Under the pieces are notes generated by a model that ran no database searches, was not told the origin of the DNA, and worked only from the letters and a program-made list of their open reading frames with translations. From Marsupella aquatica (taxonomy: Eukaryota; Plantae; Marchantiophyta), in assembly GCA_973895155.1 (NCBI GenBank), contig OZ316891.1, positions 21,837,168-21,901,167 on the forward strand: a stretch of 64,000 nt of DNA, read 5' to 3'. Made by a program: the position numbers and the translations under genes. This document shows positions 1 through 59,824 of this stretch, piece by piece. Every line of letters begins with the position of its first letter. The first letter of the stretch is position 1.

Positions 1-220
1 CTTCTGCAATTGGGGGAAATGCCTTTCAGCCGCCATCCAGATAACCCTGATGCACATCCTGATGCTCTTATATGCCCACGACATTATTGTGAGGTCTGTA
101 AGGAGTATCGGGAGGGCATTTGGGATTTTGTCCAATGTCGTAGATGCCCTTGTGCATGGTGTCGTGATGAAGGACCTATAGCAGATAGGCACTTGAGGAG
201 AAGGGTGAGGGGCCGAGACA
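1..220 (+). pseudogene. Fragment of a second EDM2/NSD-type PHD-finger gene, cut by the CACTA-1 terminus at 221
   Basis: ICPRHYCEVC...FVQCRRCPCAWC aligns with ACPLHRCKAC...IVHCARCPTMWH in ORF 10570..11250. The last codons of ORF 10..246 (TLEESEVN) are read from the TIR. The 5' end is outside the window or spliced. Confidence 0.65.
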
Positions 221-249
221 CACTAGAAGAATCCGAGGTGAACTGAGAC

Positions 250-540
250 CGCAATATATGACTCATTTTGGCTCATGTGACTTCATTGTGACTCAACGTG
301 ACTTGACCCACGCTGTGACCCTTGGAGTTGCAAAAGTTGAGACCAAAAAATGGAAGTCACTATTGATACTGGGCTTTGCAACTTGCTTGATACCCATTTG
401 TGACTGATCTGTGACTTTATTGTGGAGTCTAGCCTTGTTTCGACGTGACTGCAATATGACTTCAGCGAGTCACATCGTAAGTCACATACATGACTTACCC
501 GCATTCAACAACGACTAGCGTGTGACTATTTAGTGTCACA
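250..540. repeat. Subterminal short repeats (GTGACT/AGTCAC, both orientations) of CACTA-1
   Basis: Dense TGACT/AGTCA motifs directly inside the TIR at 221. Similar motifs occur at about 16690-16990 and 41400-42015. This layout is typical of CACTA TnpA-binding regions. Confidence 0.7.
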
Positions 541-1075
541 GGAGAGACCAATGGAGACCCTGGCCCGCGTCACACAACAGAACCATTTGGGACTCTATAT
601 ACTCATGTTTATAACTAATAAGGTTCACATGCAAGTTATAACCATGACTAATGAACACAGAGGGACAGTTCATAAGAAGAGAGAGCACTCGACATTACAA
701 TACATAGAAACCTGATGTTCTAACTTTAGAAATATAACACATTGAATACAAGAAATGAACATAGCATGAATGACATCCACATGAAACAAAGCATCATATA
801 AGCAGATCCTACATAAAACATTCATAAGAATTAAACACAATCACAATCTTGCTAAAAAATGAAGATCATTTGAATTCCAATGGAATAGTTTACAATGTGA
901 TCAATGTAATTTAGACAAAACAGGAACTCATAATTGATGACTGTAGGATGAGATAACTGAAAGCACATGCATGATACTATGAATCTCCAAGAGGACATGA
1001 TTCTTGTACTGTTTCTTGACATCTAAAATCTACATAACATGACTCACACTACAAACAAATAATGGCATGACATTG

Positions 1076-4000
1076 TTATGGATCCTCTATGAACTTGCTT
1101 GGCCATAATACCAAAGAACCTGCAGCATCTCCAAGTGTCTTTTGAGGAGGATCATCATTTGTGTTTGGAATGGGAAGGACAGCTTTAGGTTTCACTAGTA
1201 ATGTGACTAACACTACTGAATAACCTGGGGGAATCCTCTTGCCATGGAACGTTGTGGAACCAACCTGCACTCTGGCAAATCCTACTCGTGTTCCACTCTC
1301 ATCAACAGCTAACAAGCCACTTTGTCCCTCAGCATTAGGTGCTTTCCCCACTTCCACCTTAGATCTTTCTGCCAGCACTGTTCTTGGAGGTTTGTATGAA
1401 ACCTTTGACGTGGCTCTGCTCCCACCAGCAGACTTGCTTCGTGTGCGCATGCTTCCTCTCTTCACAGTAGTGAAGCTAGGCTCAGTAGGTTCCTCTGTTA
1501 GGACTGTCACAGTAGCAGGTTCATCACCTGGGAGTGTCATACCAACTAACTCTTTGGTTGGATTTATCTCAACAAGAGGCACACCTGTCATTGAGAATGA
1601 TACATTCTGCAAATCATTTATCTCTGCAATGGAGTCAAGATCTACATAGCATGAATCTGGCTCAATGGTATCATTGTCATGCTTGCTGATATCCTCATTT
1701 GCCCCAACATTGATATCATCCACTCCCTTGCCAATGTCATCCTCATCCAAACATGGTTGACTGCCCTCTGTCAAACAAGTTGCTTGTACAGACTGCAACT
1801 TTGTTGCCTCTAAATTACAGCGAGTATTTGCCAGGTTCTCATACTTCTTCTCTGTAGCACCTGTCTTATTCTCTATGGACACAACAACCACAATATATGT
1901 TACTGAAAATAACACATTCAACAAACAATGTCAATTCAAACTATACATTTAATAATCATATCCCACACAGTTGTAAAGGCCTTACCTTCAAGCCTACATG
2001 TCGTTGGCATGCCAGAAGAGTGCATCGACTTTGCCACCTCAAGTGGTGATGGTGGAACTCCTGCAGAATTGGAATCAATTTTATCTCTCACCGACACAAC
2101 AGCTTCCATTAATGTCTTGAAGTTCACATGGAACAAGTCAGTCAATGAATTCAAACGTTCATTGATCTCTGGAAGACATGTTTCGACAGCCTTCAAACGA
2201 CCACTTATCTCTGTAAGTGAAGATCCACCTCCCTACATGACACAGGGGTATAGGTTCAATCACTCCATATGAAATGTTGGGCAATATATGCACAATCAAT
2301 GTTATATACAGTGTACACCTGAAATTCAACGCAGGTCATTCAATTACCAATCAGAACTCATATAACTTACATGCTTGGAGGATTCAGATGCACCCTCTTG
2401 AGCCCGGGTGTTCACAATTTCAGCCCTCAACTCTTCTTTTGAAGGGCTTTGCCCCAATTGGGCTTTCTGCACATGCATGGCAAACACAAGTTATCGATCA
2501 ATATTCAGGGAACGTACACTAAAAAACAAAGTTTACATGTAGGGACAGTACACTAAAAAATAGTACATAGTGTAGCATAAATTACATAGCTAGGCCATTC
2601 ATTCTTACCAAACGTTTAGCTGTCGGTGCAGTGCCGGTCCTTCCTGTCAGATTAGGGTTCTGAACACTCAACCTGGCCTCGGTCATCTGTGAACTCTTCT
2701 TTTTTGAAGCATCTGTTACAAAATAAGCTACTAACCTTGCCCACACTTTATCATCACAACTGGCTGGTGGAGGCATATCTGGCTTCTCCCCACCTTCCTT
2801 CCAAGCCTTATGCATTCTCCACCTCTCTTGCTTGATAATTTTACCTGCTGTACTCTCTAGGCAACCTATGTCCACGCCATCATCACTGCCCACATAATTC
2901 CATTTGGCAGCAACATTTTCACATACAGTCTTCCAATCTTTTGGATGCTGTTTTTTAAAATTAATAACACTCACATCTAACCAACGCAATACTTCAGCTT
3001 TCAAATCAGCATGCCATCGGTTCTTGCGAGGACACTCAGCATCCACCCATTGTCTCTCATTCAACTTTACGTTCCCTTTCTTTGTCACCTCCCCTCGTGC
3101 ACTGCTCTCGGTAGTACTGGGCGTTGTATTGGCCACCCCTTCATTCACCCTACCTGGGGTTCTGAAGCCACCTGGGAAAATACAATGCCATTCATGCTTG
3201 AGAACTACATATAGCAGAATGGATGACGGCAACATTCAATGCTTCACTTCAAGAAAAATTCTTCAAACATACATACCTGTAGCTCTGCCTGTAGATGCCT
3301 GTGCAGGGACTGCACTCTGAAATTGTTGCGACCCTGGACCACCTGTCCAGCCTAGTACAGGGGCCGGATGATGTCACTTTCTAGGTATGTGTGTGCAAAC
3401 ATATGTACTGAAAACTAAGTACAAACTGTAGGAAAACAACTGAACATTCACCGACATACCTGTCCCCCTTCCGTGCTGCATCTGCATAGGGGCATTAGTG
3501 AATACTTGAGTCGATGGTTCGACTGTCCAACCTGCACACATACATTTTCTATCATTATACATGTGCAGAGTCCCCCCCACGTGAATGGACTCCACATATA
3601 ATGAGTTCTTCCATTGCTGACAAGATCAGACATTACCTGCTCCTCTTCCAGCGTTTGTAGGTACTGAATTTTGATATCCCTGCCAATTACCTTCACCACC
3701 TTCCCAACCTTGTTCATTCCACGACCCACCACCATCCTCCCAACCTGGTTCAACCCATGTCTGTCCTTGTGGACATTGGAACTGATCATTACTAGCATTT
3801 GCCCAATCAGGTTGGGCAGAATCTGCATGCAATGGCAGGTGGACAGAATTTCATGTTGTCTGAATCCAATACATCCCAAACAATGTCAAAAATTGATATG
3901 CAGTCTGAAATTCAGGAGTGCCATGCCTTCACAAAGAACTGGCATATAGATATATACTCACATCCCCACGGTTGAGGTGGACGTCCATACCCACGAGATT

Positions 4001-4783
4001 GTGGGTTTGGACCTGCTCTGCCTCTACCACGGGCATAACCTAGAGCTTGCCCCCTGCCATAGTATTGGGCACCAGCCTGGGATCTACCACTACTACCACC
4101 TCGCCAACCTTGATCAGAGGTCAGCCCCCCCTGCTGGTATGGTGCATGCACAGGCTTCGAAGGCAAAACAGAACTGGCAGGACGCTGCATCACATCACCA
4201 ACTACAATGTCAGGAACTAAGCAAGGTACATATGTGTAGTACTGAACATATGAAACCTCTAAACAAGAGTTTTTAACTCAAAACCTTGTTGGGAAAACTA
4301 CTTACATGTTTCTTTTGGGGCTGCTCTGCAATGTATTCATCTTCATAACCCCCATCCTCATCCATTTCCTCTGGAAAATACTCATCATCTGCATCTTCTT
4401 GTCTAGTGTCTGCACCCACCTGTGCAGCATCAATGTCATCTCCACATTCTGCCATTGTAGGTACGACCTTCTTGCTCAACCTGTCACTCCGACGCACAGG
4501 CCCAGAGATAGTGCTGGTCACCCTTCTTGCGTACTCCTTTTGTTTCTTTGAAAATGCTGTGGCTCTGCGACATTCCAATATGAGAATACAGTCACAATTT
4601 CAGTGCCACATTGAACTATTCATGTCACACAAACTCAGCGGAGGGGTGTAGTTGAGAATCGTTCCCTTACAATTCAGCCACATCCTTTTCCAGATCCAGT
4701 TCTGCGATTTTGGCTTTCACGTATGCTCGTTGTTCCATAGCTTTCCTTTCATACTCACACATCTCTGTGTCACTCTGTTCCAT
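1076..4783 (-). CDS. tnpA: TnpA-like (ORF2) protein of CACTA-1, about 10 exons
   Basis: GT-AG exon model: 4783-4671, 4564-4306, 4184-3962, ~3825-3637, ~3531-3460, 3351-3277, ~3172-2609, ~2466-2372, ~2232-1987, ~1861-1076. The first six junctions were checked and are in phase. Central Ptta/En/Spm-like region (DDKVWARLVAYF...KKSSQMTEAR...NLTGRTG); C-terminal Tnp1/En/Spm-like motif (FHGKRIPPGYSVV...KTLGDAAGSLVLWP). Confidence 0.75.
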
Positions 4784-4939
4784 CCTACTGGACCACAAAA
4801 ACATGTCATCTATGGTCACCCCGTATAACACAATGCAACCACAATCACCAGGCATCCATCCATACATCTGTGTTGCTTCAGAATTACTTTATTACACATC
4901 CTTCCCCTCACTAATGTCTATGCAAACAATTCACATTAC

Positions 4940-7900
4940 TCATGGCACAGGCACACTGTTGGCATCTGCATCTCTGAATTCGCCTCCTTCAGCAAATGCA
5001 TCTACCCTTGTCACAGGAATGAAGTCCCCGCTATCATGAACTACAGGCACTTGGTCTGAACGCCGACGATCAAAGGCACTATGAGAGTGTAAATGAAACT
5101 CAAGGTTTGATCCTTCCATCCGGCGTTGCCTGGCCTGTTTATGACACACTACACGCCAACCTGGGGAGTCTTCCACATCCAGGAAGAAAGCTTGCTCCAC
5201 CTGACTAGGAAACACAAATGGCTCAGACCATTCGGGCAATTTCCCTCTGAAATTGGCCAGCAAGAAACCGTCGTTGTCTCTCTTCATGGTAGCCCTGTTA
5301 CCAAGCCAATCCTGCCGCACCCATGAACCTTTCATAAGAATCACAGGACTGGACACCGCCCCATAGTCCAGAGCCCATATGTCAACTAATTCTCCCACAT
5401 ATCCCATCTCCATCCAGGCCCTGTCGTGATTGTGGCTCTGTTGCTCAAATACAGTGATGAGCCCGCAGTCATTCGTCACCCTGTAGGCACTGTCACCATC
5501 CTTCACTCGGAAGTGATTCCCATATGCTCTCATCCGTTTGTAAGTCTTCACTTTCAGGCTAGGGGCATTAGACAGTAGGTAAACATCTGCATCCATGTCT
5601 GGGTGGGTCTCGTGATGCTCTCTAATTGCCACTCTGATCCACTCCATGAAACCTGGAAAAGTTGTTCCTGCAGTGGGATGGGCCGCCTTCAATGACTCAT
5701 ACTCCCTGAACGAACAACCACACAGCATTAGCTTGGGTAAACATGAACAGGCTGAAGGAGAAAACCACACGAACACAACATTTAAGCTCATGAACTGGAT
5801 TATAGCACATGTATGCACTCACTGTATCCAGGGTTCCATCACCACAGTGTTGTGCAATACAAAGTCATGTGCCAAGTCTCTCATAGATATGGTCAGGTTC
5901 TTTGTGGTTGCAGCCCCTTCCAGTACTTCACCTACCACCCCTTCCTCCTCATCAGAATTCCACACCCTGGTCTTCACATGCTCATATTGTGCTATGTATT
6001 CGGTCAGAAATCCCAGAGTCTCATCCTTGATGTAACCTTTAGCCATGCTTGCTTCAGGTTTGTAATATGTTCTCACGTGACCTTTGAGTAGCTTCATGTA
6101 CCGTTCCAAAGGGTACAACCAACGAGCACTCACAGGCCCAAATTGGTGTAGCTCTTCCACAACATGGACAAGTAGGTGGGTCATGACATCAAAAAATGCG
6201 GGAGGAAAATAAATCTCCAGGTCACACAGCACCTGAGCGACATCTTCTGTCAGTTGTGGGAAGTGTGTTTCATCCCAAACCTTCACACAAATACGACGAA
6301 ACACATCACTGAGTCGCATGATCACAGTACGAACAGGCTTCTGCAACAGGCCCCTCAGGCATAAAGGCAACACCTGTTGCATCAACATATGGTAGTCATG
6401 GCTTTTCATACTACCAAGCTTTCTAGTCATGATATGCTTCTTGAAAGCACTGCCATAGTTTGAAGGAACCTTCAAAGAACTCAACCTCTGCACAAATAGT
6501 TCCCACTCTGTGTCTGTCAGAACATAGGGCGCTTGGTACTTCAAGAGCACATCAGCTCTGTGGGCATGTGGCCTCAACCAAAGATGGGGTTTCATTCCCC
6601 TCTGTTCAAGATCCAATCTCACTGAACCAGTGTCTTTCTCTCCACACAAGAATCTGAGTAGACTCTCACAAATATTCTTTTCAATGTGCATAACATCAAT
6701 GTTATGTTTGCTTGGCTCAAACTCCTGCATCGTTGCAATGCAAAAGCGTCAGGAAATGCCTCAAGTTTAGTCTCTCTCTTCGAAATGAATGCACATGCTC
6801 TGAACCAAAACATGTATCCCAATTAGCATCAACTCCAAGAGGCTTACCCTCCAGTACTTGAGCTCCAAGTCCAATATGCTCAGTCTTTTTACACCATATC
6901 GCTTTATTGGATCACTCACTCCATCTTCCCTGCCCCCTCGTTTGATATAGTCATCCCTCAGTGCTCCCCACTGCCTGATCTCCTCTTTGGTCACTCGTGC
7001 CGGGGGTCCACGTTGCTCAATCTCATTGCCAAAGTGTGCAATCAGTGCCTGTCTTTCTCTGTAAGGGTGATCTGTCTTCAGAAAACGACGATGGCCCATG
7101 TATATCACTTTCTGCAGGGCTCTGGAGTACTCACTGGTGACATTGCGCCCACAGATAGTACAAGCACAATATCCTTTTGTTGTTTGGCCTGATATCATCC
7201 CATGGGCTGGGTAGTCAGCTATAGTCAGAATGACAATGGCTCTAAGGATGAATGGGTTTAACCTCCCAAGCCTCTGTAGGACATCATATGTGAGAACTCC
7301 TTCCTCCCAAAGCTTTCTCAATTCCTCCACTAGGGGAGCCAGAAACACATCTATGTTGGCAGATACAGCACTGTCTGGCCCTGGTATCAGTAGGACCATC
7401 AGAACAAAAAATCGCTTTGTAGTCATCCAAGGAGGAAGGTTATAATTCAAAATAGTTACAGGCCAGCATGAAAATTTGTTGTTCTTGTCTCCAAATGGGT
7501 TTACCCCATCCAATGACAGCCCAAGTCTGACATTCCTCGGCTCAGCAGCAAATTCGGGATACATCTCATCTATGAGTTTCCATTGCCTTGAATCTGCAGC
7601 ATGTCGTTGTAGCCCATCATCACTTTTCTTGTCAGTTGCCCAAGTCATCATCTCCGAGATGGCACGGCTTCTGAACATCCGCTGAAGTCTGGGAATGAGT
7701 GGAAAATGACGAAGTACCTTGGCGGGAACCATAGACTTTCCTGAGTTCCGATACCTGTGCTTCCCACACTTAGGGCATGTCAACGATTCTTTATACTCCT
7801 TTCTGAAAAGAACATGCCCATCAGGACAGGCATGGATCGAATCATAGTTCAATCCAAGATTAGATATGCATCTTTTTGCCTCGTACATGTTCTTGGGCAA

Positions 7901-8671
7901 AATATTACCATCTGGTAGCACAGTTGTTCGCAAGAATGCCAACAACTCAGAAACCAAAACGTTGGGGACATTGTGGTTGCCGCAAATGTTCAGGAACATG
8001 ATGACAAATCCCAGTTTAGAACATTTGCTACCGGGGTACAAAGACTTCCTGCCTTCCTGTATTTGCAGGGGAGAGCCAAACATCCCATCATGCCCAGGGG
8101 TTTCCTGCCCTATCTCAAACTCATCAAGAGGCTCTTCGACAGGGGGCACACTTGCATCTGCAGCCGTATCCTCTTCATTGTCCAGCCCATCATGAAATGC
8201 ATCCAAGTCTTGGAAGATGTCTCTCACCATCTCTTCCACATGAATTCCTTCGTCACGTGGTGCTGCCTGAGCACCATCCCGTTGGAGAGCTGACAACCCA
8301 CAGAGACCAGCTACAACATTTTCAAATGCACCAGGCAGAACCTCACTTGCCCGTCTTGCAGCATTGGCAGCATCAAATTCTAACCTCCACTCCTCGTCGG
8401 AAGAATCTTCCTCTGCAGGATCATTCCAAACTCGATGTCGTGGATCTCTTCCATGAACCGCGATATGCCGCCAAACCTCATTCAGACCCCTGGTACGGGA
8501 TCCTTGGCAGATTGCACAAGGACATCTCATCCTACTGGCTCCTGAAAGTCTGGTTCGTAACCTTTCACGCTGCCAAAGCTTATTATCATGGCGTGATATC
8601 CTTGTGGGATGATGCAAAGGCAGTGCCTGTGCCCTGGGCTGGGTCTGGGGAGGGTGGTGACCAGGGTGCAT
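4940..8671 (-). CDS. tnpD: CACTA TnpD transposase, 3 exons (8671-6848, 6724-5823, 5705-4940), 1163 aa, apparently intact
   Basis: Transposase-associated Zn motif CPCAIC...H; IHACPDGHVLF...CPKCG; EPRNVRLGLSLDGVNPF; ADYPA; HNIDVMHIEKN; MKSHDYH; FPPAFFDVMTHL; WLYPLERYM; EPFVFPSQVEQAFF. Both introns are GT-AG and join in frame with no stops. Confidence 0.93.
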
Positions 8672-9104
8672 TGTAACAGGCTGGGAGCTCTGCAGTCATG
8701 GACAGCAGTGAACAAGGATGCCTAATGGTGGTATTTGTGTTCCATATATCCCTGACTGTATCTGCCAAAAGAGTTAACATAACGTGTACTAAATTCTCAC
8801 AAACCCTAAACCACCCCAAAAGAAAAAAACAGGTTCGCAAGTAGTGTACCTATTGTCAAGTGAATGACACAAAATTTCTAAATGTTGGAGGGTGTCACCA
8901 CCTCCTCCGCTGTCCTCAAATGTACCGCCTCTGCATGTACGTTTACAGTGACACCCCCAGGCAGCAGGAAACAACAATCCGCCAACAGTAAAATAAGCCC
9001 AACTGCCACCAACCATAACAAGGTACATTAGTTCAAAGATCACATTTATTTCAATGATCTGATTTATACAAAAAAACTTGTGTCCAAACTGATGCTACTA
9101 CTCC

Positions 9105-9977
9105 TCACTCTGATTCAGAATCGCTAATGACCCATTCCTCACTTGTTGTCTCATAGTCCTCTCTGTAAGGATCCTGACCCTTCCGTGGCCAGGCCTCAAA
9201 AAGATCATAGTCCATTGGGTTTTGACGCTTCCCAGCTGCTACTGATTCCACAAGCCAAGCATATGAAACCACAAACACATTATGGGACATGACATAAAAG
9301 CGAATGTCTCCCTTCCCAAACTTGCGGCAGGCTTTGGGATATGACTTAGTAATGACATGAGTGGTGTCCTCTGTTATATTCTCCTCCACTGTCCCACCTA
9401 GGTCAAGCACTGTGGACTTGTACACTTTGCACTTAACCTCTCCAATTCCCGCCTCCACAAATACCATGCTCAGCCCTTTCAGAATGGGGGTTGGTTGCTT
9501 CGTCTCCTCAGCCAACATACTCTTCAGCCTTGTAGAGCTCTGTCCTTTGTTGAGTACAGGTCCATATTGGAGATCAGCAAGCCGTGCCTTTGCTTCCCAG
9601 ACTTCTTGTTCAGCCCAAGCTGATGCAGTAGCTTCTTCATCCTCCCACAACTCATATTGCTCAGTATCCTGTACAATCTTATGTGCTATGGAATCTGTGA
9701 TCCAAGAGGCCTCAACTACTTTTAGGCCTTGCTTAGTAATTGCAGAATTCATGTAGGACCATGACCACTTCTTTATCACTGATAGCCATGTCCCTGCAAC
9801 AACATGTGTAGTCTCTGGAGTGATGTCCTGAACTACAGTGCCATGGAGCTCAGAGAATCGTTTCTGTACAGTTGGCCAATGCACTTTGGTCAACCCATGC
9901 TGGCCATGGACCAAAATCGCTCTGACCCCTGTAAACACTGCTGGGTGGTCACACTTTCTACGTTTACCAGGCTCCAT
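9105..9977 (-). CDS. Intronless tandem-BRCT protein (DNA polymerase lambda-type BRCT x2), CACTA-1 cargo
   Basis: Two internal repeats with the BRCT signature: VFTGV...LHGTVVQDITPETTHVV...VVEASWITDSI...QYEL and ILKGL...LGGTVEENITEDTTHVI...VVSYAWLVESV...DYDL. N-terminal KRRK may be an NLS. Confidence 0.85.
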   Translation of the reverse strand: MEPGKRRKCDHPAVFTGVRAILVHGQHGLTKVHWPTVQKRFSELHGTVVQDITPETTHVVAGTWLSVIKKWSWSYMNSAITKQGLKVVEASWITDSIAHKIVQDTEQYELWEDEEATASAWAEQEVWEAKARLADLQYGPVLNKGQSSTRLKSMLAEETKQPTPILKGLSMVFVEAGIGEVKCKVYKSTVLDLGGTVEENITEDTTHVITKSYPKACRKFGKGDIRFYVMSHNVFVVSYAWLVESVAAGKRQNPMDYDLFEAWPRKGQDPYREDYETTSEEWVISDSESE

Positions 9978-10569
9978 GTACACACACCCTACGTGATGAC
10001 AGTGAATTTTGGAAGAATGGGTTCACCTGACAATACAAGGACAACAAAATTCCTGCTTTTTGAGTTGATCTGGCCCACTGGTGCTCAGGTCCGATTTTGA
10101 TAGGTACAAGGGATATGTGAACAATACGTACTAGGCACCTGCACGGATGCAGGACATTGTTTGAATATATACTACAAAATCCATATCCGTGGTGAAATGA
10201 AGTGCAACCAACTTGTCATGGCACATACATATTTTGTTGTAAAGGAGGATACATTCAATGACAAACTTATAGGGCAATTTGATTAATTGCATGCCTGATA
10301 ATTTATACGCTTACAACTTAGAAGTCCTGTTTTAATTTAGCAGTGTGATGAAAGTGTTTATGAAAATGACCACTCAGCCTAAATACTTCCAAGAAGGCTT
10401 GTAAGGATAAGTTTGTATAGGCATGTACCCAGCCACTGACGCCAGAGCACAAGATAAGTGCTGCCTATATAAACTCGCCTACCCAACTCCTTTTCAAAAT
10501 TGGAATCTCTGCAATCTCAAAAAATAGTACATCCACATCAGGTGCACTGTGCATGTACAATGTTCAGCT

Positions 10570-11250: not shown

Positions 11251-11261
11251 GCCTGCGCATG

Positions 11262-11405
11262 AGATAGACTCTACAATTTAGCAGACTGCACAGAAAGTAA
11301 TATATATTTAGCATTTAAGGTACAAAGGCATTTAGATAGACTCTACAATTTAGCAGACTGCACAGAAAGTAAAATATATTTAGCATTTAAGGTACAAAGG
11401 CATTT
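11262..11405. repeat. 72-bp tandem duplication just upstream of the PHD ORF
   Basis: AGATAGACTCTACAATTTAGCAG...AAAGGCATTT occurs at 11262-11333 and 11334-11405 with one mismatch. Confidence 0.95.
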
Positions 11406-28740: not shown

Positions 28741-28752
28741 GCAAATATGTAG

Positions 28753-29049: not shown

Positions 29050-29062
29050 ATATGTAGTAGTG

Positions 29063-40317: not shown

Positions 40318-40325
<8 letters not shown>

Positions 40326-43690: not shown

Positions 43691-43854
43691 TCAATTACTT
43701 TTATCCCATTTTTTGCAACCAAAAACTTGGTTTTTACAAAGGAATGCAGAATCTATATCCAATACTTTTTTTGCCTTAGATTTTTTTTTGCCATGGACAA
43801 AACAAGAAGTGTGTTCACATTCTCGTTTGGTCCGTCACTAATCTTAAGTGTCTT

Positions 43855-47549: not shown

Positions 47550-49733
47550 ACAACATGGCCGTCAGCCACTCATCTGGCCGCATTGAGCGCTTTAGCAAGC
47601 GGCCAGACTGTTTCTTTGCGTGAGTTCAAATCCACTTTCTACACTGTCATTTACAAATTGGAGTTGATGTATGGCAGCAATTTCACAAATGCATTTGTAT
47701 TTAAGCAACTAGCCAGGTATGTGCACCATGAGGCTTTGGATGTGTATGAGTAGCACTCTCAACGGCTGCTTGCTGTCACACAATTGCCTAACCTTGCCTA
47801 TGCCAGTGCAATTGCGGTAGCCTCACAATTGGCCTTATAGAATGCCATTGCAGCCCATGCTGCTGCTCTTGCCACTTCCCCTCCTACTCTAGTTCCTACC
47901 ATTGCGCCAGTTACTCCCACTGTGAGTCTTGGCACAGGCTACATCGGGCATTTCTCCCACCATTGATTCCCATGCCTTTGCTGATCCAATGGCTGAGTTT
48001 TTCCAGGTTCTTGAATTAGAATTCCCAATCAAGAGTGCTGACAAAATCATGCAGTTGGCCACCTTTGTGAGGCAGCGCGCTGAAACACTGAAGATGATGT
48101 ATTGTCGGCTTCTCAAGCTGAAAGAGGACACCCAGAGCATCACTGACCTAGAGGCTCGGGGGTCTCACTATATGGGGACCTCCCCATTGCCTGCAACGTT
48201 TTTAGGCCTCGGACCCCCTAAAATGTAAGAAAAAAAATTTATTTTTTAACCCCTATAAAGTTGGAATATTCTTGGAATATTCTAAAATTTGGATTAAAAA
48301 GACCCTTATATTCTTATAAGTCTCAAAATTGAATTTAAAAGACCCTATTGTTCTTCTACAAAAATTCTTAAGTCTTCCCTTAGAACCAATAAAATGACCC
48401 TATCCTTCGTCGCACGTGATATGCCATTTTTGTGGAAGTGAGACCCCCGAGCCTAGAGGCTGCTCATTGCTATCTTCATGCATCGGAGGGCACACCAGCT
48501 CTCCATTCGCAAGTGTTGCAGCAAGAATTCTCAGAGTTTGGAGATAGCTACACATTTCTCAATATCTATGAAACTGCTGAGAAACTTGAGTTGGCCCATG
48601 CACATTATGAGGCCAGTATTGCGTGTCCATCGTGATCCAGGTATCAGGCTGTTGCCTCCACACTGGCCACTCCTTCCAGTGTACCACAATATGGTCCAAT
48701 ACCAAGCAAGCACATGCTGCTTTCATGCTGCCATCGTGCAACTATTGTGGTAACCCTAATCACAAGGCTAATGAATGTGATATTATTGCTGAGGACCTAT
48801 CTTGTGATTTTTGTGGGAAAATGGGCCATTTGGAGGCAATTTGTTTTGCCAAATTCCTAGAGAGGAAGCAGCTACGACAACAGGCCCCTCATCCTGCTCC
48901 TGCTTCCACTCCCCCACCAGCTAGGAGGGCTCCTATTGCCTCAGTTGCTCCTCCTTCCAGTGGCAAAGCACCCGGTGCCAACAAATCGCCCAAGCAGCAA
49001 CAGAAGCAACCAGCTCAGAAGGAGGCTCACAACGCACAGGCAACTCAACTCCAATCTCTGACTCATGAGGTTAAGTCCTTACGTGCCAAACTTGCCAACA
49101 TCAAAGGCAAGTCCACTGCCTCTATTGGTCCTTCTCAACCGGCTGGTCACGTGCAACCCATCCCTGGTCCAGGCACCATTGATAGTTCAACACCTCTACC
49201 TCGCTTTTTCTATGGCTTGCCATTTGATGCTCATATGGGTGAGCATGTGTTGTCCTCTGCTACACAGCTTGGCCTTACAGCAAAATTTTCAGATTCATTC
49301 TGCCCATCCTATTTTGCTTACCAGCACGCTAGTACTGCCTCTCGTACTGCTCCCACACGCCGCATTGTACAGGCTGATGGTGTTGCTGCCGGTCCTATGA
49401 CTAGAGCTAAGGATGCTTGAGCTGTCATGCCCTAATCTTTTTAGCCACTCATGCTTGCTAAAGAGCGCATCTTGTTGGCGAGGGGGGAGGGAGCTGCAGC
49501 TACATCCATTCCACCACCAGGTGTTGCTGACATTTCACAGGGAGTTGTTTCTCTTGAGCTGCTTGAGCATTTCACCTCTGGTATGGCACAAAGGATTCTT
49601 ACAACACTTTTTAGTTGCCATGATTTACAATTGGATGCTAGAGCTCTCATCAAAGCGCTAGAGGGTTCACTACATTCTTCATCAGCCCCTGTGACACCGG
49701 TTTTGGAGGTCCAATCTCATGAACATACTGGAC
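47550..49733 (+). pseudogene. Gypsy gag with two CCHC zinc knuckles, interrupted by MITE copy 2
   Basis: DPMAEFFQVLELEF...FVRQRAETLKMMYCRL; CNYCGNPNHKANEC and CDFCGKMGHLEAIC (about 48737-48844); stops present. Confidence 0.8.
48155..48451. mobile_element. 297-bp MITE, copy 2
   Basis: Perfect 15-bp TIR CTCGGGGGTCTCACT/AGTGAGACCCCCGAG; 8-bp TSD CCTAGAGG (48147-48154, 48452-48459). Confidence 0.96.
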
Positions 49734-52382
49734 TGTGACAGGGCCCCAAACCCGATAGTAACTCAGTGATGACTTATAATAGCGTATATAGGTAGAAAGA
49801 TAAGTAGGTGTAGTAAAAGTGGTTGGATTTTCAAATTTTTTATTTTTGTTAGTTCTAATAAATGGATGCGACAACTGGAGGCCGGAGTTGAGAGGGGTGT
49901 AGGGCGGTGATGGATGACAAGGGAACCATTGAGGGGGTACAAGGAGGCCACAAGGCAGTCCAAGGACTTGGAGCCAAGGTGTGGGCATCTTGGAGGGGTG
50001 GGGGCTGGTCGGAGGCTCCACGTTTGACGCAAAATGGGAAGAATGACCAAAATATAGAAAACATTGAAACTTAAAACAGACGTTGCTGCGCTAGTACTAT
50101 TCCAAACATGGTCATGTTTGGATTCATTTTGAAGCCCTCAATGAGCCCCATGCGAAACTGAGGTTCTCTAGTTGATTTTAGGTTCATATCAAACAGTGAC
50201 ATCTTGAGGGACCTCAATGCCCGTAAAACGACAAACTAAGCAATCTTGGAGTAGTGATGGTGGGAGGGCCCTTAGAAGGGAGGGGTTCCCACACTTGTGT
50301 TCCCCTTCACCCTTTGTGTGGTTCTCACATGGTTTTTGCTCTCTTTCCCTTCCCCACTCCGTAGAGGGGCACTCCGTAGAAGAACACATCCGTAGAATGG
50401 GCCCTCACACTTTCTTCCTTCCCTTTTTCTTTATTCTCACTTGTGGGGTTTCTACCCATACCTAAACCCTAAACCCTTTCCCTCTTGTGCTTGCTTCCAC
50501 CGTGTGTACGGACCCTAGTTGTACAAACATCAGATTTTCGACCATCTCAAAATCAGGAGTCTACGGGCTTGTTGGAAAGAGCTCGTTGAGCTGAATCCAA
50601 CGATGTGTCACACGGCCAAAACAGAGCTAAGACGAGGGAGATACAACAAATCGCGATTTTTGAGAATACGGGGATTTTGAGGCCGTACGGACGTCCGTAT
50701 GGCAGGAAGTCCCGGCTTTGGAAGGAGGAGGTAGCAACACATACGGGGAACCCGTGATCCGTGTTTTGCAAAGCTGGGGCCCCTTGGTGTTGTACGGACG
50801 AAACGGAGGGAGACGGTCCCCTGAAAACTTAAACGACCATATCTTGGCCGTTTGACCTCCGTTTTGTGCACCGTTTACGGAGCCATGATCAAGAAGAGAA
50901 GGGCTCCTCAAATATGTTTTCAGAAGTGAATTCTGATAAAATTTTAGTTTCGACAATTATAGGGGCCCCCTCCTTTTACAACGGACCGGTGGTGGCGATC
51001 AAGAGGATTGAGGTGGGTAGGCAGGGTAGATAGATAGGATAGGAGGTGGTGGACTCAAGTGAATCCTTGTTTAGCGGAGTGGTATCCACTCCAATGGAGA
51101 GCGATGAGGAGACCAACTCAAGGGGCTCAAGCCAGGGCACCGTGAGTAAGGAGGAGGAGGAGCGATGAGGAGACCAACTCACGGGGCTCAAGCCAGGGCA
51201 CCGTGAGTGAGGAGGAGGAGTGATGAGAGACCGACTCACGGGGCTCAAGCCATGGCACCGTGAGTGAGGAGGAGGAGGACTAGGGTAGCCGTACGGACTT
51301 GTCATACGACCTCTGGATTTTGAAACTTTTTGGAAGGGTGCACTCACGGGCTTGTTGGAAGGAGCTCGCGGAGCTGATTTCAACAAGAAGCGGCGCTCCT
51401 CAAACGGAGCCAGGATGAGTAAATTAGAGCCCGACGAAGTTGGTGAGTAAGTGATACTGAAACGGCCATAACTTGGTCGTTCGACGTCCGTTTCAAGAGC
51501 GGTTTTGTGATTCATGATCAGGAGGAGTAGGGCTACCCAGAGGTGAGCTCAGAGGTGCACTCAGAGTGGCACCTAGTTTCGGCAATTGTGGGGTCCCTTG
51601 CATTTTCGCGGTTCACGGAGCAATGTTGGGGCGCCATCGAAGGCATCGTCAGTCCCATTGTTAGATTAGGGTTTGAGGAGCATGTGTGTGTCGCATGCTT
51701 TAGGATTAGGGATTTCTTTTGTGAAGGTTTTAGCGGTGCCGCTAGGGTAGCCGCCATCCTTGTGACCCCGTGAGGGGTGCTTTGGTGTGTTGTTTTGAGT
51801 ATTTAGGGGGAGAGCCCCGTAGTAGTGAGGGGGGGAACTCAGTCTAGTGTTGGTATTAGGGAAGTTAGCTCATAGCCAGAAGGGCAATTCAAGCCAGACT
51901 AGTGAGGTAGAGGTGTAGCGCTTGCCCCAGCGAGGCAGGAGTTGGGCAGACGGCAGGAGGCTGGGTTGTCCTTGCAATGTGTTACCATTTTTTGCCAAAA
52001 GATATGGATTTGGTTTGATTCCTCAAATTTTGGTGTGGCGTTATCTTTTTCGGCTCACGATTGTGTTCTTTCCCAAGAAGTGTCTAAGGAATACTTGCAC
52101 GGATTGGTCGACTGTGTGAGTAGGGGGGGTGGTGACAGCACTCCACCAGCGACCAGTAGGAGTGTGTGTGTGGCGTAGTCCATGGGACTTGATCAAAAGC
52201 AGAGGGGCTAGTCGGTAGACTTGATCAAAAATTACACTTCTGGGAGCGGAATCAAACATACTCATCCTACATGCAATAGAATCCTAATAGCGTCCCTCCA
52301 CGTTCCCGTCATACGATAACAAACAATTTTAGTAGGAGGAAACACGTATTTGTCGTGTAAATCGTTTGATAAGCAGGTGACA
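49734..52382. mobile_element. 2649-bp solo-LTR-like insertion between gag and protease
   Basis: TGTGAC...GTGACA termini; 5-bp TSD TGGAC (49729-49733, 52383-52387); removing it restores the frame HEHTG-PSSSPLH. Confidence 0.87.
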
Positions 52383-52619
52383 TGGACCTTCTTCTTCTCC
52401 ATTACATGTTTCCACTAGTTTGGCTGCCCTTTTACCGATTGCTGCTGATTGTGTGACCAGAGCTACACTTAATTCTGGTCATGCTGCTCCATCTTTCTGG
52501 GCTATGTTGTTGAGTGGAAAGACCGTGGACACTAACTCCCTTCACAAGGTACCTCATCATTTGCCGAGAGTGGTGCCTAGTGATAGGACTTCAGTTTCCA
52601 CCACCATTGCCATTGTTGA

Positions 52620-52960
52620 CAACAAGAATTCAGTGGTCAAGTTGGAGGGTCACACTCCTCAGGTGGTCATGCTAGGCACAGGCGCTCAACCAATGATCTT
52701 GGGCATTCAGTTTGCCAAGAAGATGAGACTCCTGACTGATCATTTATAGCAATCTAGGTGGCACATTCGGACTGCTAATGGCACTGTGGAGGATGTGTTG
52801 GGTGAGAGTTCAATTTTACTCACTCTCACTTTTAATGGAGGTATAGATCAGGAATTGCATTTCCCACTCAGATGTTTGGTTACCAATGCCACGACATATG
52901 ATGTGCTCATTGGCCAAGAGGCTTTGTTCCCACCAGGTTTTACCATTGACAACTGGCATG
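52620..52960 (+). pseudogene. Retrotransposon aspartic protease (catalytic D replaced by G)
   Basis: VMLGTGAQPMI (consensus LDTGA), IRTANG flap, YDVLIGQEAL; stop at 52747-52749. Confidence 0.78.
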
Positions 52961-53337
52961 AGCATGCATACTACATAGTTGATTGGCATACTGATGGCTC
53001 ACACTTGGGCTACATTCCACTTGATTTGCATGGTGCCCATACACCTATGGCTCACCACTGTGTGTTGAAAGAAGTGCACACAACTACCTATGTCAACCAC
53101 CCATTGCACGATTGGATTGAGAAGGATGACGATGAGGTGGCTACTACACATGCTGCTGCACATATAGCAGCACTTTCTAGCAACGTGGATCATCAACCAG
53201 AGGTGGTACAACGACTTCAAGTAGCCCATGGACCTTTGGTGGCTGCATTGTGCAAGTTTGAAGACCTTGGGCAGCACAATGGACAGCCAATAGCCCCAAT
53301 CTTGAGCGCACCAGTTACATGGACTCCTCCTCCAGAT

Positions 53338-54260
53338 GGCCTTACATTGCTTGAACTTTTTGGTGGCATTTCTACAGGCCTAGAATCTCTCCTACAATCT
53401 GGCATGGTGGTGAGGTAGTACATCTACGTGGATATTGATCCAAGTGCAAGACAAGTGGCTGAATCCTGTCTGCTGGAATTTTCAAAGCGATTTCCCCAGC
53501 AATTTCCACACAGTGCATGGAAGTTTGCCTTTTCTTTCTTCCCTCTAGATATCCAGCACCGACACTTAACCCTTCTTGGCTCCCTTGATTTGATCATAGC
53601 TGGTTGGGAATGCCAAGGATTTTCAGCTGCTGGTCACGATGTTGGATTGCACATTGATTCTTGTTCTGGCCTTTTCACAGCATTGGTTCAGGTTCTTACC
53701 TGGGCTCAGGCCCTCTACCCTGTTGTTGGTTACATCATTGAGAATACTCCATCTCAGTTTGACCAACATCCACAGGTCAAAGAGGATTTCAGTATGGTCC
53801 AACACTACTTGGGACCACCCCTTCTCATTGATGCAGTGCACTATGGTTCTTATGCACATCATCTTTGTAACTTTTGGACTAACCTTGCACCACCTTCCTT
53901 GCTGGAGTTAGCTCTTCACCACACATCCAAGGACACTAACCTCACAGTGGACCAGATTTTGGATACTGCCAGTTCTTGCCAACCAGCTACACGACAGGAG
54001 CCAGCCCCTTGGTATCCAGCCAATACCATTGGAGAGCCCCGTGCTGCTTGGCCTACATTTGTGTCCTTTCCAGGTGCCCATGCTTTTCAGGGTGATGGTC
54101 CTGGCCTGGTTTATCGACATTCTACCAGTACATGGGATGAACCTAGTCCTGAGGAGAGAGAACGGGCTATGGGCTTCCAATCCGGTCCTACAGGCCACAC
54201 CCAAATCACCAGGCTGGCCAGGAATGCTTTACTTGGCAGGGTAATGGATCTCAATGCTCT
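53338..54260 (+). pseudogene. C5 DNA cytosine-methyltransferase domain embedded in Gypsy pol between protease and RT
   Basis: Motifs in canonical order: I LELFGGISTG; II YIYVDID; III LDI; IV DLIIAGWECQGFSAAG; V SGLF; VI YIIENT; VII/VIII IDA..GSYAHHLCNFWTN; IX EERERAMGF; X RNALLGR. Same reading frame as the protease, with one TAG at 53416-53418. Confidence 0.88.
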
Positions 54261-54659
54261 CACTTGGCTTCTGGTCACTTGCATCCTTTTTCAGATGTAC
54301 ATTCATCCAACATCAGGAGTTCCAGCCCTACCACTCCATGGAGCTGCTACATGGCATCCAGACCAGGTGCACGTACCTCTATTCAACACTCACCACTTCA
54401 GTCCAACTATCGGGGGGGAGGAGGTCCCTTGTAACATGGCTGACAATATTTCTGAGTTTCATGGTGTGGACCAACCCAGATCAGCAGGTACAACAGGCCT
54501 TGGAGAGGCCTCATCACCTTATCAGCACCATGCTAGCAGCTTGGACAATGGAGAGGCTGGCACTTTTGGCTCTTCAAGCACCCGAGTACATCAGGTCCTA
54601 TTCCTAGTGTTTCCAACTACACATTCATCATGGGCAACCACCTAAGTAAAAGATAGAAG

Positions 54660-56655
54660 GACCAGCTGCTGAATTTGCTCCTCAAGCATGAGAATGTGTT
54701 TGCTTTCTCTATGAAGGACTTGGGTAAGTGCAAGACTATGCAGTTCCCCATTGAGTTGGCTGATGAAACACCTATCTTCAAGCGGAGACACCGTTTGAGT
54801 AAGCATGAGTGGCAGCTGGTGGATGAGAGGTGCCAAGAGCTCTATGAAGCTGGTCTTATTGAGCCATCTACATCAGATTTTGTAGCAGCTACAGTGATGC
54901 CAACAAAGAAGGATTTCAGTGGATTGTGGACAGAGAAGCGCATGTGTGGGGACTATAGGCCACTGAACCTGGTCACACCCCAGGACAGGTATCCCATGCC
55001 ACGGCCAGAGGAGCTATTTGACAGCATTGGAGACTCAGACATCTTTACTCTTGTGGATCTAAGGCAAGGCTTTAACCAGATTTTGCTGCTTGCAAAGGAC
55101 CGCAAGAAAAAAAATTTCCATGGTAGTAACCAACTAAGTATGGGAGTGGTTGGTGATGCCATTTGGCTTGAAGAATGCGCCCATATTCTTTCAAAGAGTC
55201 ATGGACCAGGTTCTTCAAGGTGCTGAGTTTCTAAAATGCTACATTGATGATGTGTTGGTCCACAGCAAAGGATTTGACCAGCATCTACTTGACCTTGAGG
55301 AGCTATTCTTGAGGCTTAAGAAGGTGAACCTAAAGATACACCCCAAGAAGTGTGAATTTGCTGTCAGATCAATAATATACCTTGGGCATCGCATTATTCC
55401 AAATGGAACCATGGCTCACTGGGCAAGGTAGTATCCATCTTGGAAATGCCCACTCCTACTGATGTTCACACTTTTAGGAGCTTTATTGGGTTGTGCAATT
55501 ACTACCGGATCTACATCAAAGATTTCAGTACCATTGCACACCCATTGTACTCTTTGTTGAAAAAGAATGTGACTTGGACATGGAGTACAGATGTTGAGGC
55601 AGCATTTGCCACTTTGAAGGAGAAGCTCTCAGAATACCCGGTGTTGAGAAGACCTGATTTTAGCAAGGTCTTTGTGCTACACACAGATTGGAGTGCCCTT
55701 GAGATTGGTGCCATTTTGGGCCATCATGATGAGGAAGGTAAAGAGTACGTCATTGCCTATGCATCCAAGAGCAACAATCAGGCAAAGAGTCATTATTCTT
55801 CTTATGAGGGTGAATGCCTTGCTGTTGTGTGGGCTGTCATACATTACAGGCCCTACCTCTATGGGACCAGATTTACTCTCTACACCAACCACCAGCCCTT
55901 GAAGTGGTTGATGACTAACGAAAGCTTACTGGCAAGCTTGCTTGTTGGACACTCATACTCTAGGAGTATGACTTTGAGGTAATTCATAGGCCTGGTGTGA
56001 CACATCAGAATGCTGACACTATGTTCTGCACCCTTTTGATTACCTCTGATGATTCCTCAGATGCACGACAGGATTTTGACCAGGTTTCCATCCTACCTGC
56101 ATTTCATGCATCTACCTATCTTGCTTTGCTGCCATGCTACGTTGTTGACCAACCTGTGGTGGACATATGGGAGGACAACAATACTCTGAGATTTCTACAG
56201 CATGGAGAATACCCCACACATGTCACTGCAGCCCAGAGAGACCAAATTCAATAGAGGTCCAAGCGCTACTTGTGGAAGGGAGATCATCTTGTGCGCTGCT
56301 TGCCAGACAGGGAAGTGGTGGTTCCACCCATTCATGAGAGGGTTAGCCCTATCCGTAAGGTACATTCTAAGCTTGGTCATTTTGGCATTAAGAGGACTTA
56401 CAGCCTCTTGGTTCCCCATTATCATTGGAGAGGCATGCATGGCCAGGTTTGGGATGTTATTGCCTGGTGTGAATAGTGTGATAGGTGAGGACTTTTTTCA
56501 CATCTCAGCAACCCACACTTCATCCATTCCCTATTCAAGGCATGTTTCATCGTTGCTCATGTGATTTGGCTGGAGAATTGCCCCTCACATCTCGGGGTAA
56601 TCTCTACATCATGATCATGATAGAGCATTTCTCCAAGTGGATAGAACTTGTGGCA
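54660..56655 (+). pseudogene. Ty3/Gypsy RT, RNase H and integrase N-terminus
   Basis: RMCGDYRPLN, QDRYPMP, MPFGLKNAP, YIDD, TDWS, YEGECLAVVWA, H-x4-H...C-x2-C, IEHFSKWIEL; frameshifts and stops; cut at 56656 by an LTR. Confidence 0.94.
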
Positions 56656-57792
56656 TGTCACACCATTCTAGGTAGTGTTAGAGTGTATCGTACTATCTAG
56701 ATCCGTATATTTGGTATGTGTGCTATATGAGCCGATAAGGTTCCGTTAGGTTTGTGTGAGAGGGTACTTCTCACTTGTGAGGCATTGAAAAGTCATCTTT
56801 CAATGTTGAGCCTTGGAGAGAGAGGAGCTTGAGTGTGGCTATGGTGGCTGTGAGCTCCGCTTGTGTAACATGGATTCCTTGAGTAGTGCAAGGTGCATTG
56901 GCTTAACATACGTGTGTGATTGGATCGGTGCGGAATCGATGGGGTATTGTTGACCGGGATCGTTGTGCCGATTGTTGAGGAGATTACATTGAAAGATCAT
57001 GAGCTTCAAACTCTATTGTGCAGACAGAAGCTCAGTTTGAGTTTGTCGTTGACGGTGACGGTTCGTGGTAGCTCAAATCAATTGGATTTGTGTTTGACGC
57101 GGATTCATGTTTCTTGAATCGTTGGTTCAGATATTGTTTGAGTACACTGTTGCTATTCGATCTGGTTTTGGCCAAGCTTGAACGTTGTTGGATCTGGATC
57201 TGGTCTAGATCTGGATCTGGATTGAGTCGGAGTCTAGATCTGGAAAGAGATGGCCAAAGGTTGCTGCTTGTATTGCGCTGCTATTTTGTGGACAGGTCTG
57301 TTGGAATTTTGAGTGCTCGAAGCGTTTTATTGTCAAGGGACGCTTGCGGAATGTCCCAAAACTGTGTGCGACAGGTTTGCGGAGGTCGAGAGCCATCAAC
57401 GTTGCCATTTTTGTGAAGGAAATTGCTGCTTTTGAGTGGCAAATATTGCCATTTTTGAGCCCGACGACTTTTGTTTTGTGTACACACACAACTGTGCGCG
57501 CATAAGGCGAATCGCAAGGTCATCCATCCCAGGACTATTTCGAGTCGCAAGCGCAAGGTGAAGTGCAAGGTCACCCATCCTGGGACTATTCCGAATTGCG
57601 AGCACAAGGCGAAGCGCAAGGCCACCCATCCCGGGGCTATTCCCAGCCGCGAGCGTTTAACTGGCAAGTTCTCATCCCACCTTGTGTACACACAAGCTTT
57701 CACAACTTGTTGTTTAGATTCAAGCCCCAGGGGGCTTTATACACTTTTCGGTTTGCTTAGAGCCTTGTTTCGGGCCAAATCAGAGGCTCTTT
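56656..57792 (+). mobile_element. Partial LTR inserted into the integrase
   Basis: GTGGCA|TGTCACACC here versus the uninterrupted GTGGCATTGCCG at about 58842 in the sister copy; homologous to 60141 onward. Confidence 0.72.
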
Positions 57793-58027
57793 CACTACTA
57801 CATATTTGCCAATTTTGCGAAGGCGTTTTACAAGAGGAAGAAAGCTTTGCAAGATTAATCTCATCGCTAACCTTGCGATACGATACGTATCGCACTTAGC
57901 GAATCTACACATATCGCAACACATAATTGCGAAACTTAGACCATCGCAACATTTTACGACACTTCAGGTATCGCAAAACATTTCCGAAGCAATTACCATT
58001 GAACAAGTTAGCGATCTTTACCACTTC
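57793..58027 (-). mobile_element. 235-bp duplicated terminus of CACTA-2 with intact TIR
   Basis: CACTACTACATATTTGCC followed by TTGCGA/TCGCAA repeats. Confidence 0.9.
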
Positions 58028-58029
58028 AT

Positions 58030-59824
58030 TACATTACAGGCCCTACCTCTATGGGACCAGGTTTGTTCTCTACACCGACCACCAGCCCTTGAAGTGGTTG
58101 ATGACCAACGACAAGCTTACTGGCAAGCTTGCTCTTTGGGCACTCATACTCCAGGAGTATGATTTTGAGGTAATTCATAGGCCTGGTGTGACACATCAAA
58201 ATGCTGACACTATGTCCCACAGCCCTTTGATTGCCTCTGATGATCCCTCAGATGCACGGCAGGATTTTGACCAGGTTTCCATCCTGCCTACATTTCATGC
58301 ATCTACCTATCTTGCTTTGCTGCCATGCTACATCGTTGACCAACCTGTGGTGGACATATGGAAGGACAGCGACACTCTGAGATTTTTGCAGCATGGGGAG
58401 TACCCCACCCATGTTACTGCTGCCCAGAGAGACCGAATTCAGCAAAGGTCCAAGCGCTACTTGTGGAAGGGAGATCATCTTGTGCGCTGCTTGCCAGACA
58501 GGGAAGTGGTGGTTCCACCCATTCATGAGAGGGTTGGCCTTATCCGTAAGGTACATTTTGAGCTTGGTCATTTTGGTGTTAAGAGGACTTATAGCCTCTT
58601 GGTCCCCCATTATCATTGGAAAGGCATGCATGGCCAGGTTCGAGATGTTATTGCCCGATGTGAGCAGTGTGATAGGGTAAGGACTTCTTTCACATCTCGG
58701 CAACCCACACTTCATCCACTCCCTATTCAGGGCATGTTTTATCGTTGGTCATGTGATTTGGCTGGAGAATTACCCCTCACATCTTGGGGTAATCTCTACA
58801 TCATGATCATGATAGAGCATTTCTCCAAGTGGATAGAACTTGTGGCATTGCCGGATAAGACCTCCCGTAGCACCAGCCAGGCATTCCTAGAACAAGTTCT
58901 CAGCCGCTTTGGAGCTTGTGCAGAATGTCTCACTGACCAGGGCTCAGAGTTTAGAGGAGAGTTCCAGGAGCTGCTTGATCAGGCCCTCATTGATCATCGC
59001 TGGACATCACGAGATCACCCATAGGCAGATGGCTTGGCAGAGCGCATGGTTTAGACATGCAAGAAGGGCCTTCGGAAGATCTGCCTCACCAAAAACAAGG
59101 AGGATTGGGACCTGGCCTTACCCTACATTACCATGGGGTATAGGATGTCTAGACATGCATCACTGTCTAACTTTTCTCCCTACTTCTTGTTGTTTGGTCG
59201 TCACCCAGTTCCACCTTCTGCTATTGCTGCTCACATGCTTCAGGTGGTGGACTTGGATTCAGCTGTGACTTGGTCTGATGTGATCTCTGAGAGGGCTGCC
59301 CTATTCAGGAGGGTTATGCCCATGGCCATGGAGAATTTGGCCATTGCACAGCACAGGGACACATTGCGTTATGCACACACACGACGGGGCACTTTTCAGC
59401 CCAAGGTCAGGAAGTTTGATGTGGGAGATTTTGTGTACTTGCAGCGGCAAGCTAACGACACCCTGGACACCTCTACCAGTCGTACTATTCTCAAGGTTAA
59501 AGCTATTCGACCGTCTGGAGTGCTGACAGGTCAAAGCGGTCGAATAGCGTCTGGAGTGTTGACAATAAGCGCATAATTGTTGACAATGCCAAGAACTGCG
59601 CCCCTTGTCATCTGCCTAACCTGGATCCCACCATTGTGACTTCTACTTGGATTCCACCTGTGGACTACCCTTGCAAAGTGTGTTTGCGAATTGATGATGC
59701 TGACCAGATGTTGCTGTGTGACAATTGCAATGGAGGGTACCATCTTTTCTGCCTTTGGCCTGAACTTACTCAGGTGCCAAAAGGATTATGGTTTTGCCCT
59801 TCCTGTGCTCCACGTGCTACCTGA
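58030..59824 (+). pseudogene. Sister Gypsy copy: RNase H end, integrase and C-terminal PHD finger
   Basis: Closely similar to 55840-56655 but less decayed; HFELGHFG...CEQC, CDLAG, LTDQGSEF, DGLAER, SPYFLLFG; PHD CKVC...LLCDNC...YHLFCL...WFCPSC at about 59672-59805. Confidence 0.92.

Follow-up and report, generated by a model that had tools for sequence, protein, structure and literature searches.

Transposons with chromatin enzymes are already known from algae, oomycetes and fungi. SET methyltransferases are described as encoded by the HarbingerS and MuDR families of Phytophthora (Kojima and Jurka 2014, cited in PMC12730594), and TET/JBP enzymes by fungal EnSpm and other DNA transposons (PMC12730594). 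A Gypsy element of Klebsormidium nitens (KnitGypsy-Dnmt3) is reported to carry Dnmt3 (PMC5890265), and retrotransposon PHDs, for example those of REM1 and CR1, are described as widespread (PMC6673714). Our literature search found nothing on SET in CACTA/EnSpm elements or in bryophyte transposons, Repbase Reports and most subscription journals lying outside its coverage. Here we analyse a 64,000-nt stretch of Marsupella aquatica (contig OZ316891.1; hereafter the window), in which a CACTA element, CACTA-B, contains a SET exon inside its transposase gene. The window is CpG-poor, transposon-derived DNA, a nest of bryophyte-type (moss/liverwort) transposons whose chromatin domains are multi-copy family cargo. 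Two superfamilies are present, represented by two CACTA families (CACTA-A and CACTA-B) and one Gypsy family. Our overall reading, to which we assign a probability of roughly 60%, is that of such a nest with inherited, family-specific chromatin cargo, together with a CACTA-B SET exon that gives either a zinc-finger-SET or a zinc-finger-transposase product.

For CACTA-B, exon order, phases, splice sites, a position inside the element, multi-copy occurrence, purifying selection and a SET fold are observed. Its parts are as follows, with family assignments from a Pfam scan of 596 of the 688 stop-free window frames of at least 45 aa (86 frames wholly inside a duplicated copy and 6 repeat frames were omitted).

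18670-20915, minus strand: divergent second gene, resembling TnpA in its position and its acidic tail, without a Pfam match
22636-22860, plus strand: exon 1, with a CxCxxC...H zinc-finger motif; GT donor at 22861, phase 0
22972-23802, plus strand: SET exon, intact, with a phase-0 AG acceptor and its own stop codon at the end
24014-27402, plus strand: TnpD body, with a phase-0 AG acceptor at 24014 and a frame change near 24405-24448 in this copy
29050-29062, minus strand: right terminal inverted repeat (TIR), CACTACTACATAT

The left TIR was not found by an exact and a 3-mismatch search of 16900-19700; judged from relatives, it should lie to the left of the last conserved exon, ~1.1-1.2 kb away. 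The exon 1 motif is like the N-terminus of the CACTA-A TnpD. The spacer between the two divergent genes holds three diverged tandem units of ~470 bp each (21473-22481).

A metagenome scan with SET yielded 37 loci out of 140 matching stretches, most of them short and 7 at least 7.8 kb long; in most loci, the best-matching segments are 75-97% identical to a Sphagnum protein. Among loci with enough room, the zinc-finger exon lies upstream of SET in 16 of 17 (≥500 bp), TnpD lies downstream in 14 of 20 (≥700 bp) and the divergent second gene is found upstream in 10 of 13 (≥2 kb). Splice signals, counted only where the match reached the exon edge, are conserved at the exon 1 donor (GT, 16/16), the SET acceptor (AG, 11/11) and the TnpD acceptor (AG, 19/20), and the SET stop codon is present in 18/18 loci. 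One locus (L026) is a complete element of ~9.9 kb (6072-15964) with the target site duplication (TSD) ACA and CACTA termini at both ends, the right one with one mismatch; the second gene, zinc finger, SET and TnpD all lie inside these ends. Public gene models from Sphagnum and Calypogeia fuse the zinc finger with SET, and one model (P0021) continues from SET into the start of TnpD. From the conserved splice signals we infer two CACTA-B isoforms. The SET-in-transposase design itself is well supported.

The SET domain proposed in the initial annotation was confirmed at 22972-23799, both by Pfam (SET, 5.7e-6, above the cut-off) and by fold: the AlphaFold2 (AF2) model (predicted local distance difference test, pLDDT, 71.9) gave 208 Foldseek matches in the PDB at E ≤ 0.001, and all those listed are SET proteins. 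A sequence search of SET against the PDB returned nothing significant. The fold is about equally like LegAS4, MLL1, G9a, SET8 and viral SETs, at 13-23% identity. In the alignment, the S-adenosylmethionine-binding GxG motif and the final Tyr are present. SET methyltransferases usually have a His in the NH motif and post-SET cysteines; here the Asn of this motif is nearly invariant, the His is replaced by S, N or A, and there are no post-SET cysteines.

SET homologs number 46 among 762 candidates, and the 11 that are named all come from bryophytes (Sphagnum for 8, Calypogeia fissa for 2 and Riccia sorocarpa for 1). Of the 360 members of the top cluster, 40 were examined; among the members listed across clusters, copies lie on at least six differently numbered chromosomes of S. 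fallax and at least five of S. magellanicum. In viral_contigs, no SET relatives were found in the 51 stretches examined, and no relatives of the PHD ORF described below in 42. Given a SET exon in CACTA, many Sphagnum models named 'SET domain-containing protein' probably belong to transposons, so that counts of the SET family would come out too high. Zinc-finger-SET proteins of a moss and a liverwort (P0001 and P0002) are ~61% identical, while dS is 0.6-1.4 when the window is compared with Sphagnum-type loci; together, the two figures make horizontal transfer worth considering.

Between lineages, SET is under purifying selection, judging by the ratio of nonsynonymous to synonymous substitution rates (dN/dS). 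Compared with the loci, the window gives 0.19 for the SET core (24 loci, dS 0.61) and 0.09 (11 loci) and 0.17 (6 loci) for TnpD exons. Among recent copies, dN/dS is 0.81 for SET, with stops in 7 of 24 SET cores. These values would suit functionless Pack-type cargo, with the modules carried along passively and multiplied by hitchhiking; however, recent TnpD copies decay alike (0.64; stops in 5 of 11), as expected from decay after insertion, yet SET keeps its low ratio between lineages together with conserved splice sites and stop codon. Passive carriage is thus largely refuted for SET, and we consider it very improbable for the modules in general. A single-copy neutral event, which the initial annotation had named as its own counter-case, fails for SET on the same grounds of selection, and because SET is multi-copy and lies inside element ends, across Sphagnum and two liverworts.

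As to mechanism, alternative splicing of the CACTA-B pre-mRNA would most likely yield the transposase and a short zinc-finger-SET protein, both carrying the zinc finger. The shared zinc finger would bring SET to the element. There, SET is predicted to act as a lysine methyltransferase on chromatin or proteins of the element itself, with histones as the presumed substrate, and the resulting mark may activate or restrain the element. Instead of countering host silencing, the SET isoform could serve self-restraint or act as a non-histone regulator, either methylating the transposase or TnpA or laying a repressive mark that limits transposition. Splicing that is mutually exclusive with the transposase would suit a regulatory isoform of this kind, and the SET fold gives no subfamily and hence no assignable mark; against this, the transposon-borne modifiers covered in PMC12730594 are read there as counter-silencing, and we judge self-restraint to be quite improbable. 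A more far-reaching version, which we think unlikely, treats the pre-mRNA of this CACTA family as a switch between histone methyltransferase and transposase: chromatin state would set the terminal exon, a silenced copy would rewrite its marks before jumping, and the sister CACTA would have rebuilt an NSD-like reader and a BRCT adaptor to the same end. That chromatin state might choose the terminal exon is speculation, borrowed from the ASI1-AIPP1-EDM2 complex, which is described as regulating polyadenylation at intragenic heterochromatin (PMC9292364).

The sister element, CACTA-A, and the gene that it interrupts comprise the following features.

221-17013, minus strand: CACTA-A element; CACTAGAAGAA starts both ends
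1079-4600, minus strand: TnpA-like gene, multi-exon (Transposase_24, E 1.5e-4, under the cut-off)
4943-8545, minus strand: TnpD transposase in three stop-free segments (Transpos_assoc, Transposase_21, DUF4218, DUF4216)
9108-9977, minus strand: stand-alone tandem-BRCT open reading frame (ORF), 290 aa, intact (Pfam 2.6e-13)
10573-11250, minus strand: stand-alone NSD-type PHD cassette ORF, 226 aa, intact (Pfam, PDB profile, Atlas)
12024-12500, minus strand: Cys-rich stop-free frame without known family
13408-13760, plus strand: decayed RPL18A fragment, passive cargo, used as a control
1-219, plus strand: 3′ part of an NSD-type PHD gene, outside CACTA-A and cut by its left TIR

By Pfam, Transposase_21, DUF4218 and DUF4216 are found in the TnpDs of both CACTA elements, and since these TnpDs are 29-37% identical, CACTA-A and CACTA-B form two families of one superfamily. 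The three unrelated transposon families of the initial annotation are therefore three families, two of which are related, and the idea of three independent ones is rejected. At the flanks of CACTA-A, GAG is repeated, but with 3 extra bases on the left, so that a clean 3-bp TSD is not given; if GAG is the duplicated target, the frame of the PHD gene at 1-219 resumes after 17013.

Three NSD-PHD Pfam models match the PHD ORF, all under their own cut-offs. Its profile finds the NSD2 PHD cassette as best PDB match (1e-10), indicating a three-finger NSD-type cluster, and in the ESM Atlas it belongs to a streptophyte cluster (0.92). A search limited to near-length proteins gave 5 relatives among 123 candidates, 37-82% identical and 217-245 aa long, with ends and zinc ligands kept. 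EDM2 combines an NSD-like PHD cluster with a C-terminal methyltransferase-like domain; the ORF here is a PHD cluster only and ends at 226 aa, and the five near-length relatives are built likewise. Two EDM2-type PHDs had been proposed initially: PHDs are indeed present at 10573-11250 and, in part, at 1-219 (45% identity between the two over 33 aa, E 4e-6; Pfam E 0.25 for the latter), but the type seen is NSD. The tandem BRCT at 9108-9977 stood as proposed. It has 25 relatives at E ≤ 0.001 with 21-62% identity, the best at 62% over the full length, which keep ORF length and ends, and it resembles the BRCTs of TopBP1, Rtt107 and BRCA1 with no clear donor. BRCT is a repair-signalling adaptor and not a chromatin reader proper. 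Both ORFs are likely reader/adaptor accessories of CACTA-A.

Read depth was taken from run X1 (one of four runs covered, all of them contigs), with pieces allowing 0-2 differences, and is not copy number. It is 1554-1782 over the CACTA-A TnpD and the spacer between BRCT and PHD; CACTA-B has 506-606, and exact-match pieces at 40563-41995 have 21-23. These values suggest many near-identical copies. The PHD and BRCT ORFs are about as deep as the transposase, and depth is high in the decayed RPL18A fragment too (1344 at 13548), as passive carriage would have it. Given this control, it is the intact frames and the conservation of the proteins that argue for PHD/BRCT function: at 37-82% and 21-62% identity, respectively, the ORFs keep their length, ends and metal ligands, which speaks against passive cargo here as well. 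For PHD, BRCT and the Gypsy methyltransferase described below, single-copy neutral capture is unlikely, as these are conserved protein families with depth like that of transposase. The RPL18A fragment was captured antisense and amplified along with the element, and many copies skip ~13956-14670.

Three smaller features belong to CACTA-A or its surroundings. An Argonaute hook (GW/WG) has many repeated GW/WG motifs within a disordered tract. The GW-rich segment of the initial annotation corresponds to an existing G/W-rich exon of the TnpA-like gene near 3650-3800, but a weak one, with 2 GW and 2 more W in ~30 aa; G/W-dense windows number 3 in six frames, two of them off-frame, and an Argonaute hook was rejected as an established feature. 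Just outside the element, 17016-17099 (plus) and 17178-17411 (minus) encode facing peptides that are alike (score 54, reached in 0 of 5000 shuffles in a post hoc test); a Pfam search of the latter peptide found no family. A lone piece at 40922-41095 (plus) matches the C-terminal end of the TnpA-like protein from CACTA-A at 48% identity.

The third family is a Gypsy element with protease (PR), C5-DNA methyltransferase (DNMT), reverse transcriptase (RT), RNase H (RH) and integrase (INT) regions.

47555-49693, plus strand: broken gag (zf-CCHC) of the DNMT family that contains an inserted miniature inverted-repeat transposable element (MITE)
52402-56656, plus strand: PR-DNMT-RT-RH-INT, truncated
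53329-54300, plus strand: Dnmt3-like domain, interrupted by a stop at 53416 and lacking both motif-VIII arginines
58028-59824, plus strand: sibling RH-INT-PHD, its frame broken ahead of the PHD by two stops and a frameshift

The RH-INT parts of the INT-PHD and DNMT copies are 92% alike over 819 nt, which places both in one Gypsy family. Both domains had been predicted initially and are real: the integrase PHD lies at 59672-59806 (Pfam 4.3e-12), and the C5-DNMT lies at 53329-54300. The Pfam scan missed the latter, but 2219 candidates include 20 long relatives, and 19 of these match it at 31-71% identity along most of the domain. Of 14 relatives scanned, 8 match PF00145, and the integrase is followed by a PHD in 9; in relatives P0053 and P0151, the Dnmt3-like domain is intronless and lies within one Gypsy Pol ORF. 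An intact relative has DNMT3C, DNMT3B and DNMT3A as best PDB matches (1.5e-8), and the window copy gives a weak colinear alignment to DNMT3A (E 0.45). Both motif-VIII arginines are present in 25 of 25 relatives and lost in the window copies, where the codons at these sites (CAT, TGT) fit CpG deamination; the catalytic Cys is kept. A search for a pair of long terminal repeats of the window Gypsy found none. The Dnmt3-like domain of this family is old cargo, dead in the window. Among relatives P0052-P0070 it sits in two Pol positions, PR-DNMT-RT (as in the window) or RH-DNMT-INT, which implies a move or two captures. Further Gypsy remnants are an RT/RH fragment (43852-44106) and, beyond the INT-PHD element, another gag-like region (61900-62959).

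A second dead DNMT (32555-33526) lies in an inverted duplication.

28523-37308, minus strand: left copy of the inverted duplication; partner at 49547-58027

The two copies are 99.66% identical, with 28 differences in an 8259-bp core, and the DNMTs are identical including the stop; two DNMT captures were accordingly rejected in favour of one duplicated, dead insertion. The duplication takes in the CACTA-B end and flanking DNA, and in the right duplicate the CACTA end extends for 235 bp up to a junction with a Gypsy RNase H. The structure resembles the product of alternative (reversed-ends) transposition, though it may also be an assembly artefact. A 298-bp MITE-like insertion occurs twice (28752-29049 and 48154-48451; 98% identical); the copy inside the CACTA-B terminus is absent from the duplicated copy, and its bin has very high read depth.

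Several points weigh against inherited cargo with a two-way SET exon. The SET domain departs from usual methyltransferases at the NH-motif His and the post-SET cysteines, and its even resemblance to MLL1, G9a, SET8, LegAS4 and viral SETs matches no host subfamily. The SET loci have diverged little from one another, with dS < 0.3 in 253 of 276 pairs and dN/dS 0.81 among them, so the selection estimate draws on few independent lineages. TnpD is absent downstream of SET in 6 of the 20 loci with room, and the likeness of the zinc finger to the TnpD N-terminus is weak (E 0.028; no Pfam match). The gene models that fuse zinc finger and SET may be ab initio, the isoforms themselves being read from DNA, and if TnpD used its own ATG after 24014, SET and TnpD would be two tandem genes. 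For CACTA-A, high depth alone does not prove function, as the RPL18A control illustrates; X1 depth is not a copy number, and X1 is possibly the window's own sample. Among the contigs listed, none bridges PHD, BRCT and TnpD, and the PHD and BRCT relatives were compared as proteins.

The initial annotation had seen in this assemblage a lineage-wide arms race, in which transposons repeatedly recruit epigenetic modules. In its full form, this rival reading holds that several families took up chromatin modules from the host recently and more than once, and that they may act jointly or on each other. All the domains that it named are real and lie in three families within one 64-kb window, SET is selected and widespread in bryophytes, and in L026 a decayed DNMT-Gypsy also adjoins the SET-CACTA. 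CpG observed/expected is 0.16-0.39 in all seven modules measured, which suggests that the host methylates them. However, no close host donor was found for any module; the modules have relatives of the same design at 21-41% identity, SET falls in no host subfamily, and DNMT and INT-PHD also sit in distant retroelements, in two domain orders, their window copies being dead. Recent capture from the host and repeated recruitment within the lineage are thus not borne out. The same holds for coupling between families, as matches to NSD-PHD, BRCT or Gypsy PHD occur in none of the 37 SET loci (7 of them ≥7.8 kb). The caveat that co-location may only reflect nesting fits best, since the arrangement can be explained by nesting plus one local duplication; cooperation is probably not what holds the families together. 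We regard the arms race as doubtful and its framing as not yet earned. CWG observed/expected is 0.63-0.85 in CACTA-B (22972-26745) and 1.4-1.65 in CACTA-A (6770-11250) and Gypsy (53329-59821), a contrast that hints at differing methylation history or origin.

What is new here is the conserved SET exon inside a CACTA transposase gene; DNMT and integrase PHD in Gypsy have precedent. Like the Klebsormidium element, the window Gypsy has a Dnmt3-related, unrearranged C5-methyltransferase inside Pol, and it extends this design to a land-plant-type genome; as far as published descriptions allow comparison, it differs in its land-plant-type host, its sibling with an integrase PHD and its dead copies. 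With REM1/CR1-type elements, as described, it shares a PHD finger on a retroelement protein, and new in the window is only the likely co-occurrence of PHD and DNMT in one family, as in 9 of 14 scanned relatives. The CACTA-A PHD resembles the NSD2/NSD3 PHD cassette as a three-finger NSD-type cluster; unlike NSD2/NSD3 and EDM2, it is a stand-alone ORF of 217-245 aa inside a CACTA element, without SET or another enzyme domain. As in the account of the fungal TET/JBP transposons, several unrelated lineages in one host group, EnSpm included, carry epigenetic enzyme cargo, but there one enzyme type crosses superfamilies, whereas here each family has a different module. Conserved and multi-copy in peat mosses, with relatives in liverworts, the CACTA SET exon would offer a compact system for self-directed chromatin writing by a plant transposon. 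Its closest counterparts, the HarbingerS and MuDR elements of Phytophthora, are likewise DNA transposons with SET as regular cargo; compared by description only, CACTA-B differs in that the carrier is a CACTA/EnSpm element of bryophytes and the SET exon lies within the transposase gene.

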